Source: an uncultured bacterium
GTDB lineage: Bacteria; Babelota; Babeliae; Babelales; RVW-14
Length of the DNA stretch: 64,000 nucleotides
Reading direction: 5' to 3'
Assembly: GCA_963759805.1 (NCBI GenBank)
Contig: CAVXAT010000001.1
Span: forward strand, 1 to 64,000
The notes under the pieces are model-generated. The model saw only the letters and a program-made list of their open reading frames with translations. It was not told where the DNA came from and did not search any database. This document shows positions 13,135 through 38,762 of the stretch, piece by piece. The position numbers and the translations under genes are program-made. The number at the start of each line of letters is the position of its first letter. The stretch's first letter is position 1.

Positions 13135-13264
13135 TCAGAATTATAAGATCACTAAAATTATAAAGTCCCCAAAAAACAATCAAAATCAGGTTGCGGATAC
13201 AACCTGCTTTATAAAAATAACGAAAACTTTGGTTTTTTGCAAATTTAAGATCAAATAATGTAAT

Positions 13265-13376
13265 GAAGACTGGCCTGCTTTTCGTCCTTCGACAAGCTCA
13301 GGATGAGCGAAGCGTAGCAGCGAAGACTGGCCTGCCATCCATAGCTATGAGCCCACCGGGCGAAAGCGAAGGATGG
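13265..13376. repeat. Palindromic repeat cluster (families A and B) abutting the tRNA-Ala 3' end
   Basis: tccttcgacaagctcaggatgagcg plus a 42-bp family A hairpin that shares the CCA. gaagactggcctgc is duplicated. Confidence 0.8.
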
Positions 13377-13449
13377 TGGAGCTAACCGGGTTCGAACCGG
13401 TGACCTCATGAATGCCATTCATGCGCTCTACCAACTGAGCTATAGCCCC
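13374..13449 (-). tRNA. tRNA-Ala (GGC)
   Basis: ggggctatagctcagttggtagagc...catga atGGCat tcatg...ggttcgaacccggttagctccacca. Confidence 0.97.
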
Positions 13450-13566
13450 ATACAAAAAAATTAATCACTACTACTCTTTCACTAAAGTTTAAGCAAAGCT
13501 TACAAAAACGCAAGATTTTTTGGTTATAATATAATAGAATGAATTTTTCTGAACTAGGAGTTTTAA

Positions 13567-14888
13567 GTCAACTACTCTCGACTAAAGTCGAAAGCTTGTA
13601 AATGAATTATAAAATTCTCTACAATAGGCCGATTGACTGCGGCCCGTGTGTAAAGCCATTGGCTATACACCACTTGCTTGAAATGTTTCTAGCAGCATTG
13701 AGATCTGCGTTTAAGATAAGACCACACGAACAGGAGTAAAGAGATTGGCTTTTTCTATTTGTTTTGAGCACAATATTACATTGAGAACATGTTTGAGACG
13801 TATAATGCGGTTCAACGTATTCAACGTAAATTCCATGCAACTCTGCACCGTAATTAATTGCGTTTTCAACGCGATTAAAACTCCACCTTCCCATATGAGC
13901 CCTATGCTTTTTACGGGCCCTTCCCTTTTCGCCACATCGCTTTCTTATGTTGGTCAATCGTTCCAAAACCACAGTATCTCCAGGCTGAAGCCTAGAAATC
14001 AATTCTTTTGCTACAATTCGATCGCAATTTTCCTTAAACCGTCTCAATCTGCCAGACAACTTTTTAAGATGTCTCTTTGCAGATGGTGTGCCTGCGGATT
14101 GCAATTCCGATTTGCACGAAAGAAGCCTTCTTTCGTGCTCTTTCCACTCTCGTTTCCCTATAAATCTATTATCAGAAGATACAACTGCTTGCTTTATCCC
14201 TCTGTCAACTCCAATTATTTTTTCACTTCTTGCCGGCTTAACAATCTCTTTTTCAAAAATCAACCTAAGAACCCACTTGCCTTTGTTATTAATTCCTATT
14301 TCACCAGCTTTACAATCCCAGTCTCTGTATATTTGAGCATGCTTGTGCCACACCAGAGGAATCTTGATTCTTCCATGTTGAGTTGCAACAGAAGCTGTTT
14401 CCCTAGGCTTGTCAAACGAAAGTGTTCTGGCATCCAAACGAATCGGAACATGCCTAAGCTCCGGCTTGCATGTCTTTATTCCTTTTTTCGAAAACATTCT
14501 TACTGCCTTAACATTTTCTACCGCCCTGTTTCTCGCAGAACACAGATATTGAGATTTAAGACCAAGCCTTGCCTTCAGCAATGCATAGACTTTTTTGTGA
14601 AGATTTATAGCAGACAGTTCTTCAGAATCCCATGCAACATCAATGCAATGCTGCCAGGCTTCTTTGTAAAGTCTTGCCGTTTCGCCGAGGGCTTCCGCTT
14701 GCGTTTTGTCGAGAACTATTGGAAAAACGACTGTTCTTTGAATCACTTAACCCCTACCATTAATATGCTGTGTATTCTCAATGTATTTACTGATTTTATC
14801 TATACTAGACTAAATATTTTGCTAAAAAACTCAATATTTTTCGTTTCCTCCCCTGAATTAATTCAGGGGTTTCCACGAAAGGGATTCT
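13567..14888 (-). mobile_element. IS200/IS605-family non-autonomous element (tnpB only, IS1341-like)
   Basis: Left-end hairpin cccctgaat/attcagggg near 14849-14868. Right-end hairpin tcgact/agtcga followed by gtagttgac ending at 13567. No tnpA. Confidence 0.85.
13619..14746 (-). CDS. tnpB: RNA-guided endonuclease TnpB
   Basis: RuvC motifs GVDRG, VLERL and NADLNAA are intact. Zn finger TSQTCSQC...CSCG. Confidence 0.93.
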   Translation of the reverse strand: MIQRTVVFPIVLDKTQAEALGETARLYKEAWQHCIDVAWDSEELSAINLHKKVYALLKARLGLKSQYLCSARNRAVENVKAVRMFSKKGIKTCKPELRHVPIRLDARTLSFDKPRETASVATQHGRIKIPLVWHKHAQIYRDWDCKAGEIGINNKGKWVLRLIFEKEIVKPARSEKIIGVDRGIKQAVVSSDNRFIGKREWKEHERRLLSCKSELQSAGTPSAKRHLKKLSGRLRRFKENCDRIVAKELISRLQPGDTVVLERLTNIRKRCGEKGRARKKHRAHMGRWSFNRVENAINYGAELHGIYVEYVEPHYTSQTCSQCNIVLKTNRKSQSLYSCSCGLILNADLNAARNISSKWCIANGFTHGPQSIGLL

Positions 14889-16379
14889 ATGAAAAGCGTT
14901 ATTACTTTTTTGGAAATTTGCGAAAACTTATGCCCAATCATTTCTGAGATTAAAAATGCCGGTGGCGTAGCCTACATGGTTGGCGGCAGTGTTCGTGATT
15001 TAGTTTTAAATCATCCAATTAAAGATTCAGATATCGAAGTTCATGGTGTCACTACGCAGGAGCTTGAGACCATTTTGTCAAAATTTGGCAAAGTTGCCAC
15101 TATCGGCAAACAGTTTGGGGTTTTAAGGTTGTTGCATCTGGATGTTGACTGGTCTTTGCCCAGGACTGACAGCAAGGGGCGTAAGCCAACTGTGAAAATT
15201 GATCCTGATATGGATATTAAAACAGCCTGTCGCAGGCGTGATCTGACAATGAATGCAATGGCAATCGACTTGAATTTTGTTTGTCAAAATTTAAACGATA
15301 TAAAAAAATTAGTAAAAAATAAAAACTTTGATCCTGTAAAAGATCTTAAAATTATTGATTCTTACGGCGGGCTGGATGACATCAAAAACAGACGATTGCG
15401 TGCAGTGGATGAGAAGCTTTTTCTTGAAGATCCACTAAGATTTTTCAGGGTTATGCAGTTTATCGGTCGATTTGAAATGCAGCCGGATTCCGGGTTAAAC
15501 AAATTGTGTAGTGAGATGGATTTGTCTGCGCGCAAGCTGCCTGATATTGGTATTGGGGTTGATCTCGGTGCTGGTAAAAACATGGCATTGGCCAAAGAGA
15601 GAGTTCATGAAGAGTTAAAAAAACTCTTCTTAAAATCAAGCCATCCGTCTCTTGGGTTTAGATGGCTTTTGAAAATTGGTCGATTAAAAGAGATATTTCC
15701 GGAGTTGTGGGCTTTGATAGATGTTCAGCAGAATCCAAAATATCATCCGGAAGGAGATGTCTTTGAACACACAATGCAAACACTGGATGCTGCAGCGACA
15801 ATTGAGTTTTATGACAAAGAAAATGTAGACTATGAAAAGTATTTAATAATACTTGCTGCGCTGTGCCATGATCTTGGCAAAATAAATAAAACGGATAAAG
15901 ATCTGCATTGCAAAGGGCATGAGATTGAAAGTGTAAAAATTTCTCCACATCTTTTAAAGCGTTTAACAAACAGTAAACTTTTGATCAAAACAGTTAAAAA
16001 GCTTGTCAAATTTCATTGTATGCCATTGCAGTTGACTGGGCAAAAATCGACTTTGAAGGCGTACAAAAAATTGGCTATAAAACTTGCGCCGGAGACAAAT
16101 TTAAGGCAACTTGCGCTACTTTGGCTTGCTGATAATCGTGGGCGTAACTGTAATTCTATTAATTTCTTTCGTGATGATTTTTTAGAATTTATAAAAAAAG
16201 CTGAACAGGCAAACGTTGCAATCCAACCGGAAGCGCCGATACTACTTGGTAGGCATCTGATTGATGTTGTAAAACCCGGGCCTGAGATGGGAAAGCTTTT
16301 GAAAAAGGCTTATCGTATTCAAATTGAACAGGGCATTACTGACGTGGCGGAGTTAAAAAAACGTGTTTTGGGGGGCTAA
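14889..16379 (+). CDS. cca: CCA-adding tRNA nucleotidyltransferase with HD domain
   Basis: VGGSVRD, DSDIE, RRDLTMNAMA, EDPLR, HPEGDVFEH and CHDLGK motifs. Confidence 0.88.
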   Translation: MKSVITFLEICENLCPIISEIKNAGGVAYMVGGSVRDLVLNHPIKDSDIEVHGVTTQELETILSKFGKVATIGKQFGVLRLLHLDVDWSLPRTDSKGRKPTVKIDPDMDIKTACRRRDLTMNAMAIDLNFVCQNLNDIKKLVKNKNFDPVKDLKIIDSYGGLDDIKNRRLRAVDEKLFLEDPLRFFRVMQFIGRFEMQPDSGLNKLCSEMDLSARKLPDIGIGVDLGAGKNMALAKERVHEELKKLFLKSSHPSLGFRWLLKIGRLKEIFPELWALIDVQQNPKYHPEGDVFEHTMQTLDAAATIEFYDKENVDYEKYLIILAALCHDLGKINKTDKDLHCKGHEIESVKISPHLLKRLTNSKLLIKTVKKLVKFHCMPLQLTGQKSTLKAYKKLAIKLAPETNLRQLALLWLADNRGRNCNSINFFRDDFLEFIKKAEQANVAIQPEAPILLGRHLIDVVKPGPEMGKLLKKAYRIQIEQGITDVAELKKRVLGG

Positions 16380-16543: not shown

Positions 16544-18973
16544 TCATCTTGCCCGTGCAGTTGTTGCCGGTTGCACCGGTTTGGTTTCATTAGTCAAAAT
16601 TTTTATCCACTGCACCATAACTGCTTTTTGTGCTGGTCCCAATAAATTTGTTCCATTGGAAAGTTTTTTCTGATTGATTATCTGGAAGAGATTTAAAACT
16701 TTCTTTTTATCATATGTGTCTCGAGCTTTAAAAATACTGTTTAATGCTCCTACAAATGCAGCCATAACCGGAACAGGGGTTTGAGGGGTAAATAAAGATG
16801 CAATTTTTTCGTATGCACTCAAATCTTTACCATTTGTCGCACTATCCAACAATGCAGAGATGTATATTTTTTGTCCAGTTGTTATTTTAGCAGCACTATC
16901 CAGCTCATTAATCCATGCCACAATCGTACTAATCTGATTTGATGCGAGCAATCCCGCCGTATTCTGGATGTTGGTGAACAGATCTTTCATGGACAAAAGA
17001 TCTTCCTGCATTAAATTACCACGAGAATTATATAGTCCGGGAATAGTTACGAGGACGAGCTGCTTTTTTTCATATTCGGCATTTGGTACTGTTACTTTAT
17101 CCAAAATAGTTTTGAGTAAAGCGATCTGTTCTTTTGCCGGTTTTAACTCTATTTGGGAGAATAAAATACTTGTGGCTTCAATAATTTTTATCCAAGTGCC
17201 AAGTGTTTTTTGCATTGTGCTGTCAAAAATATTTTTATCTTTAAATGGTGAAGAATTTAGGCTATTTAAAAGATTTTTTAAAGCATCAGCCTCAGCGCCA
17301 GTTATTGTTCTCTTGTCATCTTTATCCGGTTTTTTTCTTAAACTGAAAAGATTTGTAATTCCATCTATAAAACGGCCCTTTTCAAAATTATGAACACTTG
17401 GGTCTATTGAGTTTGCAATTTGTACGTAATCTGCAATTTTTTTTGAAAACACTTTCTCAACTGATGCAGCGCTAAGTTGAGAAATTAATCTAAGAGAATT
17501 TAGTCTTTCGGGAGTTATAGCGTTTGCCAGTTCACCGATGCTTTTTGCTTTCTCAAACATAGCCGTTAGAGTAGCCAAGTCATCATTCTTTAATATGCCT
17601 CTATTACTGTATAAAACAGTGAATTTATCAATAAGCAATGGGACAAGAGCTTTTTTATTATTAGGATCGGTAATTGTAGGAAATAAGTTAACAACGGTAG
17701 AGCAGATCTTAAGTAGTTCAGGGTAATTTTTCTGAGTAGCAGTGAATTTTTTGTTCAGAACATCAATACTTACAACTATCTTTTTTGCCTGTGCTATGGC
17801 TGGGGTTGGAGCTGGAGCAGAAGGGGTTGGCTGGGCAACACCGGGAGCAGTTGGCTTGGTGGGTAAAGCTGGCTGGCCCAAGACCGATAACCCTTTGGTT
17901 GGGGTTGGCGTAGGGGTGACTGCCGCTGTTTTAGCTTTTTCAAATCCAGCCAATGATGATTTTTCTGCTGCTGTAAAAAATTGGTTTGCTTGAATAAATT
18001 TGAAAAGAGTTAAAACACTCTGCCGTGTTGACTCATCACCTACAAGTCCTATTAGACGTCCAATTTCGGTGATCAGATCATTTCGACTTGTAATAGTTAT
18101 TGATTTATTTACATTGGAAATGAGGCGCTTGTAAGCATCAATTTTATTTGCTATCCGGTCTAAATCGATTGCTCTAACGGCATCAAGCTCGTTGGAAAAA
18201 TCGGTCTGTTTTTTAATTTGTGATTCCATCTTACTTCTGCCGGCAAGTAAATTCGTATAAATTTTGTTAAACATTTGTGTATATTTGGAGACAGAAGGAG
18301 AGGTCGATTTGCGTAGCTCATTTTGGACCTGGTTAAGTAAAAAAAAGCTTGTACACTTATCATCACTGGCGCCCGTTTTTGAAGGATTGCCCAAGATTTT
18401 TGTATATATTTCATCCAGCGCTGAATTTGATACTAGATATGTTGTTGTATCTGCGGCTGAGTTTAGCACATCAGTGTAAAAACCGTCCAAAATTTTATAT
18501 TTTGTATCAAGAGTTATATTTGGGAATAAGGCGCTTAAAGATTTGAGAATCACTTTATAAACTACGATTTTGCTTTTTGCTCCCTGATTTTCATTGAAAA
18601 GTGGGGTGCCGGGTGAGGCTGCGTCTGTTAAAGCCTTAAGAATATCAGCCTCTGATCCGTACTGCGTTGGTGCGGCGGCAATTGGAGCAGCAAAAGCTAT
18701 TTGTCCGGGAACTCCCATTACCTGCGGTCTAGCTCCACCTACTGCCGGGCCTGCCACTCGTCCTGCTAGCGGGACTGGCGCTTGGGGAGTAGGTGCAGCC
18801 GGTTGGGGAACGGATACCTGTTGGACAACAGGCACTTCCGGAACAACGGGTGCAGGTTGCGGGAACCCTGGAATACTACTCAGATCAACTCCGGGCATCA
18901 TGGCTATAATTAAACTATGCCAAAAACAGAGGATTAGCCCTGCTAGAAAAGTTATAAACTTTTTTGTACACAT
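16544..18973 (-). CDS. Large secreted hypothetical protein with Pro-rich linkers and repeated helical domains
   Basis: Signal peptide, Pro/Ala-rich segments and recurring LY(S/N)xRGxL...DL motifs. Confidence 0.7.
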   Translation of the reverse strand: MCTKKFITFLAGLILCFWHSLIIAMMPGVDLSSIPGFPQPAPVVPEVPVVQQVSVPQPAAPTPQAPVPLAGRVAGPAVGGARPQVMGVPGQIAFAAPIAAAPTQYGSEADILKALTDAASPGTPLFNENQGAKSKIVVYKVILKSLSALFPNITLDTKYKILDGFYTDVLNSAADTTTYLVSNSALDEIYTKILGNPSKTGASDDKCTSFFLLNQVQNELRKSTSPSVSKYTQMFNKIYTNLLAGRSKMESQIKKQTDFSNELDAVRAIDLDRIANKIDAYKRLISNVNKSITITSRNDLITEIGRLIGLVGDESTRQSVLTLFKFIQANQFFTAAEKSSLAGFEKAKTAAVTPTPTPTKGLSVLGQPALPTKPTAPGVAQPTPSAPAPTPAIAQAKKIVVSIDVLNKKFTATQKNYPELLKICSTVVNLFPTITDPNNKKALVPLLIDKFTVLYSNRGILKNDDLATLTAMFEKAKSIGELANAITPERLNSLRLISQLSAASVEKVFSKKIADYVQIANSIDPSVHNFEKGRFIDGITNLFSLRKKPDKDDKRTITGAEADALKNLLNSLNSSPFKDKNIFDSTMQKTLGTWIKIIEATSILFSQIELKPAKEQIALLKTILDKVTVPNAEYEKKQLVLVTIPGLYNSRGNLMQEDLLSMKDLFTNIQNTAGLLASNQISTIVAWINELDSAAKITTGQKIYISALLDSATNGKDLSAYEKIASLFTPQTPVPVMAAFVGALNSIFKARDTYDKKKVLNLFQIINQKKLSNGTNLLGPAQKAVMVQWIKILTNETKPVQPATTARAR

Positions 18974-38678: not shown

Positions 38679-38762
38679 GCCGAAGTGGCGGAACTGGCAG
38701 ACGCACGGGACTCAAAATCCCGCGGTAGCAATATCGTGTCGGTTCGACTCCGACCTTCGGCA
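38679..38762 (+). tRNA. tRNA-Leu (CAA), CCA not encoded
   Basis: gccgaagtggcggaactggcagacgc...cggga ctCAAaa tcccg...ggttcgactccgaccttcggca with a long variable arm. Confidence 0.95.

Follow-up and report, generated by a model that had tools for sequence, protein, structure and literature searches.

We describe a TnpB element inserted between the Shine-Dalgarno sequence (SD) and the start codon of cca, which encodes a tRNA nucleotidyltransferase, in an uncultured bacterium of the phylum Babelota (assembly GCA_963759805.1); the window is the stretch analyzed, positions 1 to 64,000 of contig CAVXAT010000001.1. Antisense to tnpB lies a long open frame, and from the sequence we favor the reading that it acts as an anti-polarity translational bridge, which would let ribosomes cross the insertion and keep cca expressed. 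For the class as a whole we see an even balance for and against the view that TCAT-targeting IS605 elements evolved a ribosome bridge several times, transposase target, transposon-associated motif (TAM), bridge stop and host start being the same four bases. Elements of this class, and ATGA as their target, have been described before. An antisense frame that is indifferent to its peptide, present in more than a third of AT-rich clade members, is apparently unpublished: literature searches recovered the target and no antisense frame in TnpB elements, with most subscription papers and the supplements outside their scope.

An open frame antisense to tnpB

The host-strand frame in exact register with tnpB is free of stops from 13715 to 14944. 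It is open because tnpB codons 1–344 include no TTA, CTA or TCA, despite the 30 leucine and 23 serine residues encoded there. The probability of this absence is about 1e-8 under two codon models, one based on usage in the genome and one on usage in related tnpB genes; the longest run without these codons in the other long open reading frames (ORFs) of the genome measures 210 codons (659 ORFs examined). Translation of the antisense frame could begin at a TTG situated 178 nt inside the right end, with AGGAG as candidate ribosome-binding site (RBS). All four antisense stops remaining in this copy lie upstream of the AGGAG-8 nt-TTG arrangement at 13732–13747, which is common to six of the seven close relatives with open frames (the window's copy included) and absent from distant ones.

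Recurrence of the open frame in related elements

The comparison covered 108 distinct full-length tnpB genes with less than 45% GC, of 163 in all. A gene was called open if its longest run without TTA, CTA or TCA reached at least 250 codons, and closed below 150. Relatives are kin, so all P values given here overstate significance. The AT-rich genes were bimodal at similar GC content, with 40 open, 67 closed and one in between. TTA, CTA and TCA supply 2.6, 0.9 and 0.9% of the codons for their amino acid in open genes, compared with 24, 14 and 19% in closed ones, and the use of other NNA codons in open genes is similar or modestly lower. We rejected a blanket avoidance of the three triplets, or of A-ending codons, since their out-of-frame density is not reduced (0.087 and 0.039 versus 0.069 and 0.042) and other NNA codons are used. 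The antisense stops that remain in open genes are concentrated around or upstream of the frame start, 39 of 48 lying beyond tnpB codon 300. None of the 25 AT-rich genes of an NF038281-like TnpB clade from the same phylum is open (three further loci had no intact ORF and two were duplicates), this being a single comparison clade, taken irrespective of its target motifs.

On a quick tree of 107 proteins the open state changes eight times, at least six of the changes being forced by well-supported branches. Divergence at fourfold sites is alike in open and closed pairs, and antisense identity drops faster than sense identity (66% where the latter is 83%, and 42–48% where it is 65–69%). Selection keeps the antisense frame open, while its peptide appears unconstrained.

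The frames also extend beyond tnpB. A left end together with tnpB was found in 79 elements, 45 of them open, GC-rich ones included. In 26 of these 45 the frame also crosses the untranslated region (UTR) or tnpA and the left end, where 13.5 were expected; five cross the whole of tnpA (about 500 nt). Fifteen of the 26 frames that reach the target stop on the TGA of ATGA, two stop 3 nt earlier and nine overshoot by 11–548 nt, with the AT-rich ones among them split 6 and 5. In-frame fusion with the host ATG never occurs: none of the eight frames in that register reaches the ATG, compared with 26 of the other 37. The frame of the closest relative (L146, 83% identical) ends at an ATGA that lies before a gene start. 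In IscB elements that share the left end, iscB is carried on the host strand, with its stop at the ATGA in 3 of 15 cases and 14–63 nt before it in 12 of 15.

At loci L320, L327 and L335 (genomes G050, G070 and G074) the iscB stop is the TGA of the target ATGA and overlaps the host start codon, and many IscB left ends of the phylum carry AGGAG or GGAGG on the host strand. We rejected the idea that locus L352 holds an inactivated tnpB whose bridge survives: the locus consists of a short remnant of an element end, with a host gene after it.

Empty alleles and the host gene

The earlier note had placed the element at 13567–14888 and predicted that its deletion would bring AGGAG to 6 nt before the cca ATG. 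Empty alleles confirm both the exact boundaries and the restored spacing. A 219-nt contig of sequencing run X2, free of ambiguous letters, joins 13566 directly to 14889 and skips the 1,322 nt; it is one contig, of depth 4.6, from a related organism (2 differences in 120 nt on the left, 10 in 99 nt on the right). The upstream region of G003, a genome of the same genus, is nearly identical and lacks the element, the joint reading GAACTAGGAGTTTAA, or AGGAGTTTAA, followed by ATGAAAATT. The cca locus of G001 is likewise empty, the contig of G002 ends before the site, and run X1 covers just the tRNA and bits of cca. The element therefore landed between the native SD and the cca start codon without duplication. 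The occupied allele is the assembled consensus on a 360-kb contig.

Between the native AGGAG and the element lies ttttaa, reaching to 13566. The TATAAT that the note had placed at 13525 is present, with a second copy beside it; this likely native −10 region is the same in G003 and reads TATACT in G001. Neither a canonical −35 nor a promoter-scan call accompanies TATAAT. The native SD scores −6.8 kcal/mol and the AAAGGGA supplied by the element −4.4 kcal/mol, both against the canonical anti-SD, assumed because the assembly holds no 16S 3′ end; the distribution of SD strength over the genome's genes is circular for the same reason. The genome contains a rho gene. In G003 (L002, G003:C18) the cca product is 15 residues longer at its N terminus after the same SD, and cca of G001 starts with GTG, so the start region is labile within the genus.

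The cca product matches PF01743, PF12627 and the HD domain. Its best NCBIfam model is PRK10885 (E 1e-44, yet below the model's cut-off), the PcnB model reaches E 7e-17, and the protein is thus nearer to CCA than to PcnB models. It has the PolyA_pol head and the DxD, RRD and EDxxR motifs, which we take to be those of class II CCA-adding enzymes. As the single PF01743 gene in an assembly that is 88.7% complete, it fits a full CCA-adding enzyme, judged from sequence. Same-genus orthologues are 72–80% identical, and the gene has no internal stops. In the match list, 36 of the 38 relatives with matches have the match at one locus; G001 has a second, distant paralogue and the match of G021 is split over two contigs. 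The note had argued that cca should be needed as tRNA-Leu lacks an encoded CCA. This is so for tRNA-Leu(CAA) at 38679 and, by a rough acceptor-stem rule, for 14–16 of the 42 tRNA genes, two tRNA-Ser calls with the tail CCAC being perhaps one base off.

Proposed bridge mechanism

Untranslated mRNA is open to Rho, and a frame that ends at the A-TGA of an ATGA hands its ribosomes to the overlapping ATG. From what its family does, the element would have been placed at the ATGA by a Y1 transposase acting in trans, and TnpB with a flank-derived guide would cut the empty junction, so that the element is retained. The native −10 box and SD remain upstream, facing the element, and the native transcript would read through it. 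Ribosomes would load at TTG 13745 and translate across the insert. Translation of this junk frame would keep Rho off 1.2 kb of mRNA that would otherwise be naked, and the ribosomes would melt the left-end hairpin and stem, so that cca translation could start at its ATG. In many relatives the frame ends with the TGA contained in the target ATGA, the classical stop-start overlap; in the window's copy, cca translation may begin afresh at the weak AAAGGGA or through ribosomes that re-initiate backward. The bridge departs from classical ATGA coupling in that its upstream frame runs antisense to a nuclease gene and encodes a peptide that is not conserved, and in that the word of overlap is the one that the transposon itself targets.

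If the bridge works, it explains how a self-retaining nuclease element can be parked before a seemingly essential gene and why ATGA should be the target, and it adds a second layer of constraint on tnpB codons.

Several observations weigh against the bridge. The frame of the window's copy overshoots its target by 56 nt, so that the ATGA overlap is missing here; it stops at +56, one frame off, because deletion of tnpA shifted the register. The 17 exact stops among relatives are not independent of the frame count, an ATGA stop being automatic in the −1 register, and of the 45 open frames 19 end short of the target. Open frames show no link to placement at start codons: an ORF of at least 80 codons follows 12 of 38 open and 8 of 31 closed elements, start-or-stop sites number 12 of 27 and 4 of 15, and flank orientation is no different. 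Closed-frame elements sit at the starts of housekeeping genes such as murD, DNA ligase and FKBP, so an antisense open frame is not required. Four open genes come from archaea, which are not known to have Rho. Roughly 200 nt between the cca promoter and the bridge start would remain untranslated, and in an assembly that is 89% complete a second cca could be missing. The missing per-site link does not refute the bridge, because it is the lineage of elements, through its many insertions, that would be under selection; it does leave room for a function internal to the element.

Start-codon placement and the substitute ribosome-binding site

ATGA opens 578 of the 1,294 called genes of the genome. 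By crude gene calls, gene starts make up 4.0% of ATGA and 6.9% of ATGAA sites, or 27 and 39% once coding sites are excluded, and an ORF of 80 codons or more follows 19.7% of genomic ATGAA sites. Across 261 genomes of the phylum, pattern searching that made no use of the target returned 68 and 9 matches. The phylum set of 49 sites besides the window's was obtained by keeping those with hairpin and TCAT, adding further copies and dropping chance matches and L334 (no TCAT). An ORF of at least 80 codons follows 25 of the 49, and one more site (L041) lies mid-gene. This proportion exceeds the ATGAA rate of 19.7% (P = 2e-7) but not clearly the 39% survivor null (P = 0.06). Several sites are true starts by Pfam, namely murD, DNA ligase, HIT and transaldolase-type cases. 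In the broad set, 14 of 60 decidable sites are start-like, no excess over 19.7%. Landing at start codons follows largely from the target, TCAT being the reverse of ATGA, and from the survival of non-disruptive insertions. The earlier note had named the start codon as target; the word TCAT, the predicted TAM, stands, and the emphasis on start codons was overstated.

The note had also suggested that the left end supplies a substitute RBS and perhaps an outward promoter. AAAGGGA is in place; it is weak, and its AAAGG is predicted to pair within the lower stem of the left end. The promoter finds no support: the promoter scan returned 4 sites where 3.2 were expected, none of them between tnpB and cca. 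No intrinsic terminator was flagged on the host strand of the element.

In the phylum set, left ends with an SD-like sequence at −3.5 kcal/mol lie at starts in 22 of 33 cases, compared with 3 of 16 for the remainder (P = 0.002), and at the family level SD strength correlates with start placement (rho = −0.63, P = 0.012). The link weakens at −5 kcal/mol (P = 0.09) and is absent from the broad set (8 of 26 versus 6 of 34, P = 0.36), and in G070b none of six copies is at a start despite AGAGGT. It is also confounded by cargo, because 15 of the 49 ends carry IscB, and 11 of 15 IscB-bearing ends are at starts compared with 10 of 26 TnpB-family ends. The clearest case of the link is G171 (L033 and L343–L349), where seven of eight related left ends adjoin gene starts, among them those of murD, DNA ligase, HIT and a DivIC/FtsL-like gene. 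These ends carry TAAGGAG or ATAGGAAG, TAAGGAG standing 4 nt before the ATG in six, and the antisense frame of their tnpB is closed. A substitute RBS is real for some relatives and marginal in the window's copy.

Alternative explanations

Placement and open frame could be by-products of other properties of the element. TCAT mirrors the commonest gene start and survivors are enriched at non-disruptive sites; cca would then be expressed by read-through or from a cryptic promoter with AAAGGGA as its RBS, and the open frame would serve the element, for example by stabilizing an antisense RNA that damps tnpB or tnpA. The abundance of ATGA at gene starts, the marginal excess over the survivor null, the association of SD-like ends with starts and the lack of a link between open frames and insertion context all speak for this account. 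It leaves unexplained why frames run on across UTR, tnpA and left end and why fusion in frame to the host ATG is never seen; its SD link also suffers from the stricter threshold, the broad set, G070b and the IscB cargo, and the window's own SD is weak and partly paired. We regard it as possible but rather doubtful.

It is unlikely that the antisense ORF encodes a functional protein such as a regulator of TnpB or TnpA. Its SD and TTG start are conserved in close relatives and its length reaches 340–500 codons or more, but in open pairs the fourfold sites of tnpB show no extra constraint, identity declines more steeply on the antisense than on the sense side, and the C terminus varies with the landing site. 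Pfam gives no match to the peptide at E ≤ 1, and 567 candidates of 220–700 aa include no homologue, a comparison in which gene callers usually drop shadow ORFs. We consider it very unlikely that the insertion silences or strongly reduces cca, with the cell coping through leaky expression or an unassembled second enzyme. Assembly completeness, the weak RBS and the missing outward promoter would allow this; the intact cca ORF and its similarity to same-genus orthologues, the single cca locus in nearly all relatives of the match list and the occupied consensus allele argue otherwise. Least credible, and close to dismissed, is co-option by the host as a cca switch controlled by excision or by TnpB: precise excision would restore the strong native SD-ATG spacing, but the element is absent from cca in both same-genus genomes with the locus assembled and sister elements sit at unrelated genes. 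The catalytic triad and both transposon ends are intact, so a TldR-type nuclease-dead repressor was rejected as well. The translational bridge thus remains our preferred explanation.

Target motif, guide and comparison with known systems

As the note had stated, TTCAT adjoins the left end on the element strand; on the minus strand the left end comes directly after TTTTCAT, and the right end is succeeded by TTAAAACTCCTAG. From 242 loci we derived 80 distinct left ends, defined without using the target motif. TCAT lies 12–20 nt before the guide in 77 of the 80 and once in a control region 60–80 nt upstream; 61 of the 77 have T at −5 (TTCAT). Loci L074 and L276 have TCAC instead, and their guides end in G (GAAG/GGTG). 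The note had suggested checking whether other copies abut ATG codons: the second copy of the genome, on contig C9, adjoins an ATG as well but does not occupy a gene start. Insertion 3′ of a fixed 4–5-nt motif without duplication is in keeping with the IS200/IS605 family. No other match to TCAT plus the 10-nt seed of the predicted guide was found in the genome.

The tnpB-only IS605B and ISC elements (IS605B-1_MA, ISC1-1_MA and IS605B-1_HM; Kapitonov, Makarova and Koonin 2016, PMC4810608) likewise have terminal hairpins and insert precisely upstream of ATGA without duplication, the published target being N followed by ATGA; their tnpB is also antisense to the ATGA-reading strand, and ISC1-1_MA shares the 5′-GT terminus. 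The words "start codon" and "initiation" are absent from the main text of that paper, and the parts covered contain neither a substitute RBS nor an antisense open frame. In the ISGst elements of Geobacillus stearothermophilus, according to the parts covered of Meers et al. (bioRxiv 10.1101/2023.03.14.532601), the TAM is again the transposon target, TTCAT being shown for an IscB and TTTAT for TnpB2, and most copies lack tnpA, as here. The same parts present cutting of the empty donor joint by TnpB or IscB as a general retention mechanism, report host-gene orientation bias for IscB only, explained by omegaRNA promoters, and show no antisense frame. Because empty-joint cutting is general, nothing special has to be invoked for a guide that targets the SD-ATG junction: the note was right that the guide matches the restored junction, and this is the ordinary behavior of all such elements.

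IStrons are IS200/IS605 or IS607 elements fused to a group I intron. Like the proposed bridge, they are TnpB elements that lower the cost to the interrupted host gene; they leave the RNA by splicing, whereas the window's element, having no intron, would be translated across. If true, the bridge would be a splicing-free counterpart of IStrons, allowing the element to sit before essential genes at little cost. We rejected an IStron here, as no intron family matches at E ≤ 1 in 13200–15000.

Element anatomy and mobility

The 1,322 nt are accounted for by the ends, a tnpA remnant and tnpB (Table 1). Both ends have subterminal hairpins and no terminal inverted repeats, as in IS200/IS605 elements. 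The left end reads TCAT, then AGAATCCCTTTCGTG GAAA, the 20-nt hairpin and AGGAAACGAAA; the right end reads CAAG, hairpin, TAGTTGAC. In IS608, four-base guides at the hairpin foot are complementary to the cleavage motifs. By this rule GAAA predicts TCAT and CAAG predicts TGAC, and both fit the ends of the element. The last codons of tnpA remain between the left end and tnpB, in frame with the latter, so the element arose by deletion from one that carried both genes, such as L066.

TnpB conserves the RuvC residues D181, E262 and D348 and the zinc-finger cysteines C320, C323, C339 and C341 (alignment). Its C-terminal tail is about 13 aa shorter than in close relatives, and the early end of tnpB (13619–13650) apparently reflects a 1-nt deletion in the tail overlapping the omegaRNA. 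The omegaRNA region has no Rfam match (13200–15000, E ≤ 1). The nearest TnpB relatives include TM6 records. Scanning genome and metagenome contigs with single proteins gave no relatives, an alignment-based search being needed, and a viral-contig scan with the L082 protein returned one already known locus.

Table 1. Features of the cca locus and of the inserted element (window positions)
Feature	Positions	Strand	Remarks
Likely native cca −10 box(es), TATAAT twice	13525..13535	+	13525–13530 and 13530–13535; outside the element, pointing into it
Predicted omegaRNA guide TTAAAACTCCTAGTTCAGAA	13547..13566	−	flank after right end; follows TTCAT in empty allele; presumed guide use
Native Shine-Dalgarno AGGAG	13556..13560	+	now 1,322 nt further from cca ATG; 6 nt away in empty allele
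Non-autonomous IS200/IS605-family element, tnpB only	13567..14888	−	1,322 bp; no target duplication; from empty alleles
Right end	13567..13598	−	guide CAAG (13595–13598), hairpin (13575–13594), terminal TGAC; same in C9 copy and relatives
Predicted omegaRNA scaffold region	13567..13760	−	overlaps tnpB 3′ end; folds with z −3.15 vs shuffles
tnpB, 375 aa	13619..14746	−	NF040570, 141 bits vs cut-off 100
AGGAG, candidate RBS of antisense frame	13732..13736	+	8 nt before TTG; tnpB codons TAC TCC TGT
Antisense ORF (putative bridge), 400 codons from TTG	13745..14947	+	register of tnpB; crosses left end; ends 56 nt past cca ATG in another frame
Remnant of tnpA 3′ end, about 15–20 codons	14747..14808	−	ends KYIENTQHINGRG and stop; in frame with tnpB; alignment to tnpA-bearing L066
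Left end	14838..14888	−	guide GAAA (14870–14873), perfect 20-nt hairpin (14850–14869), lower stem
AAAGGGA, weak substitute SD	14878..14884	+	then TTCT; 4 nt before cca ATG; partly inside left-end stem
Target motif and predicted TAM TTCAT	14889..14893	−	equals ATGAA at the cca start
cca-like tRNA nucleotidyltransferase gene with HD domain	14889..16379	+	496 aa; ORF uninterrupted

The second copy (G000:C9:19977-20894; L043, L049) is 95% identical and decayed, with an internal deletion and the left hairpin lost. TTTTCAT precedes it, the dnaE start is 97 nt downstream, and the frame that begins at its ATG is short. A GC-rich hairpin of about 35 bp is inserted in its omegaRNA region, neither half of its antisense frame contains a stop, and its empty site has no match in G001–G003. 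Y1 transposases are represented in the genome by five PF01797 matches, 25–38% identical to the family's own tnpA. The tnpA element on C8 also has a CAAG/TGAC right end; none of the five Y1 elements has the left end of the window's element. Two identical, intact IS200 tnpA copies (G000:C4:113564-113923 and C11:76599-76958), with TTTAG before them and TTCAC at the end, were therefore probably recently mobile, and two more distinct tnpA elements lie on C8 and C14.

Convergent with cca, at 16544–18973 on the minus strand, lies a gene whose 809-aa product is rich in Pro and Ala, looks secreted and matches neither Pfam nor NCBIfam. On the other side, tRNA-Ala (13374–13449, minus strand) is followed by a short intergenic region before tnpB. 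Downstream of the tRNA, at 13262–13376, are nested GC-rich hairpins resembling repetitive extragenic palindromic sequences, with the 14-nt direct repeat GAAGACTGGCCTGC; pieces of them recur several times in G001–G003.

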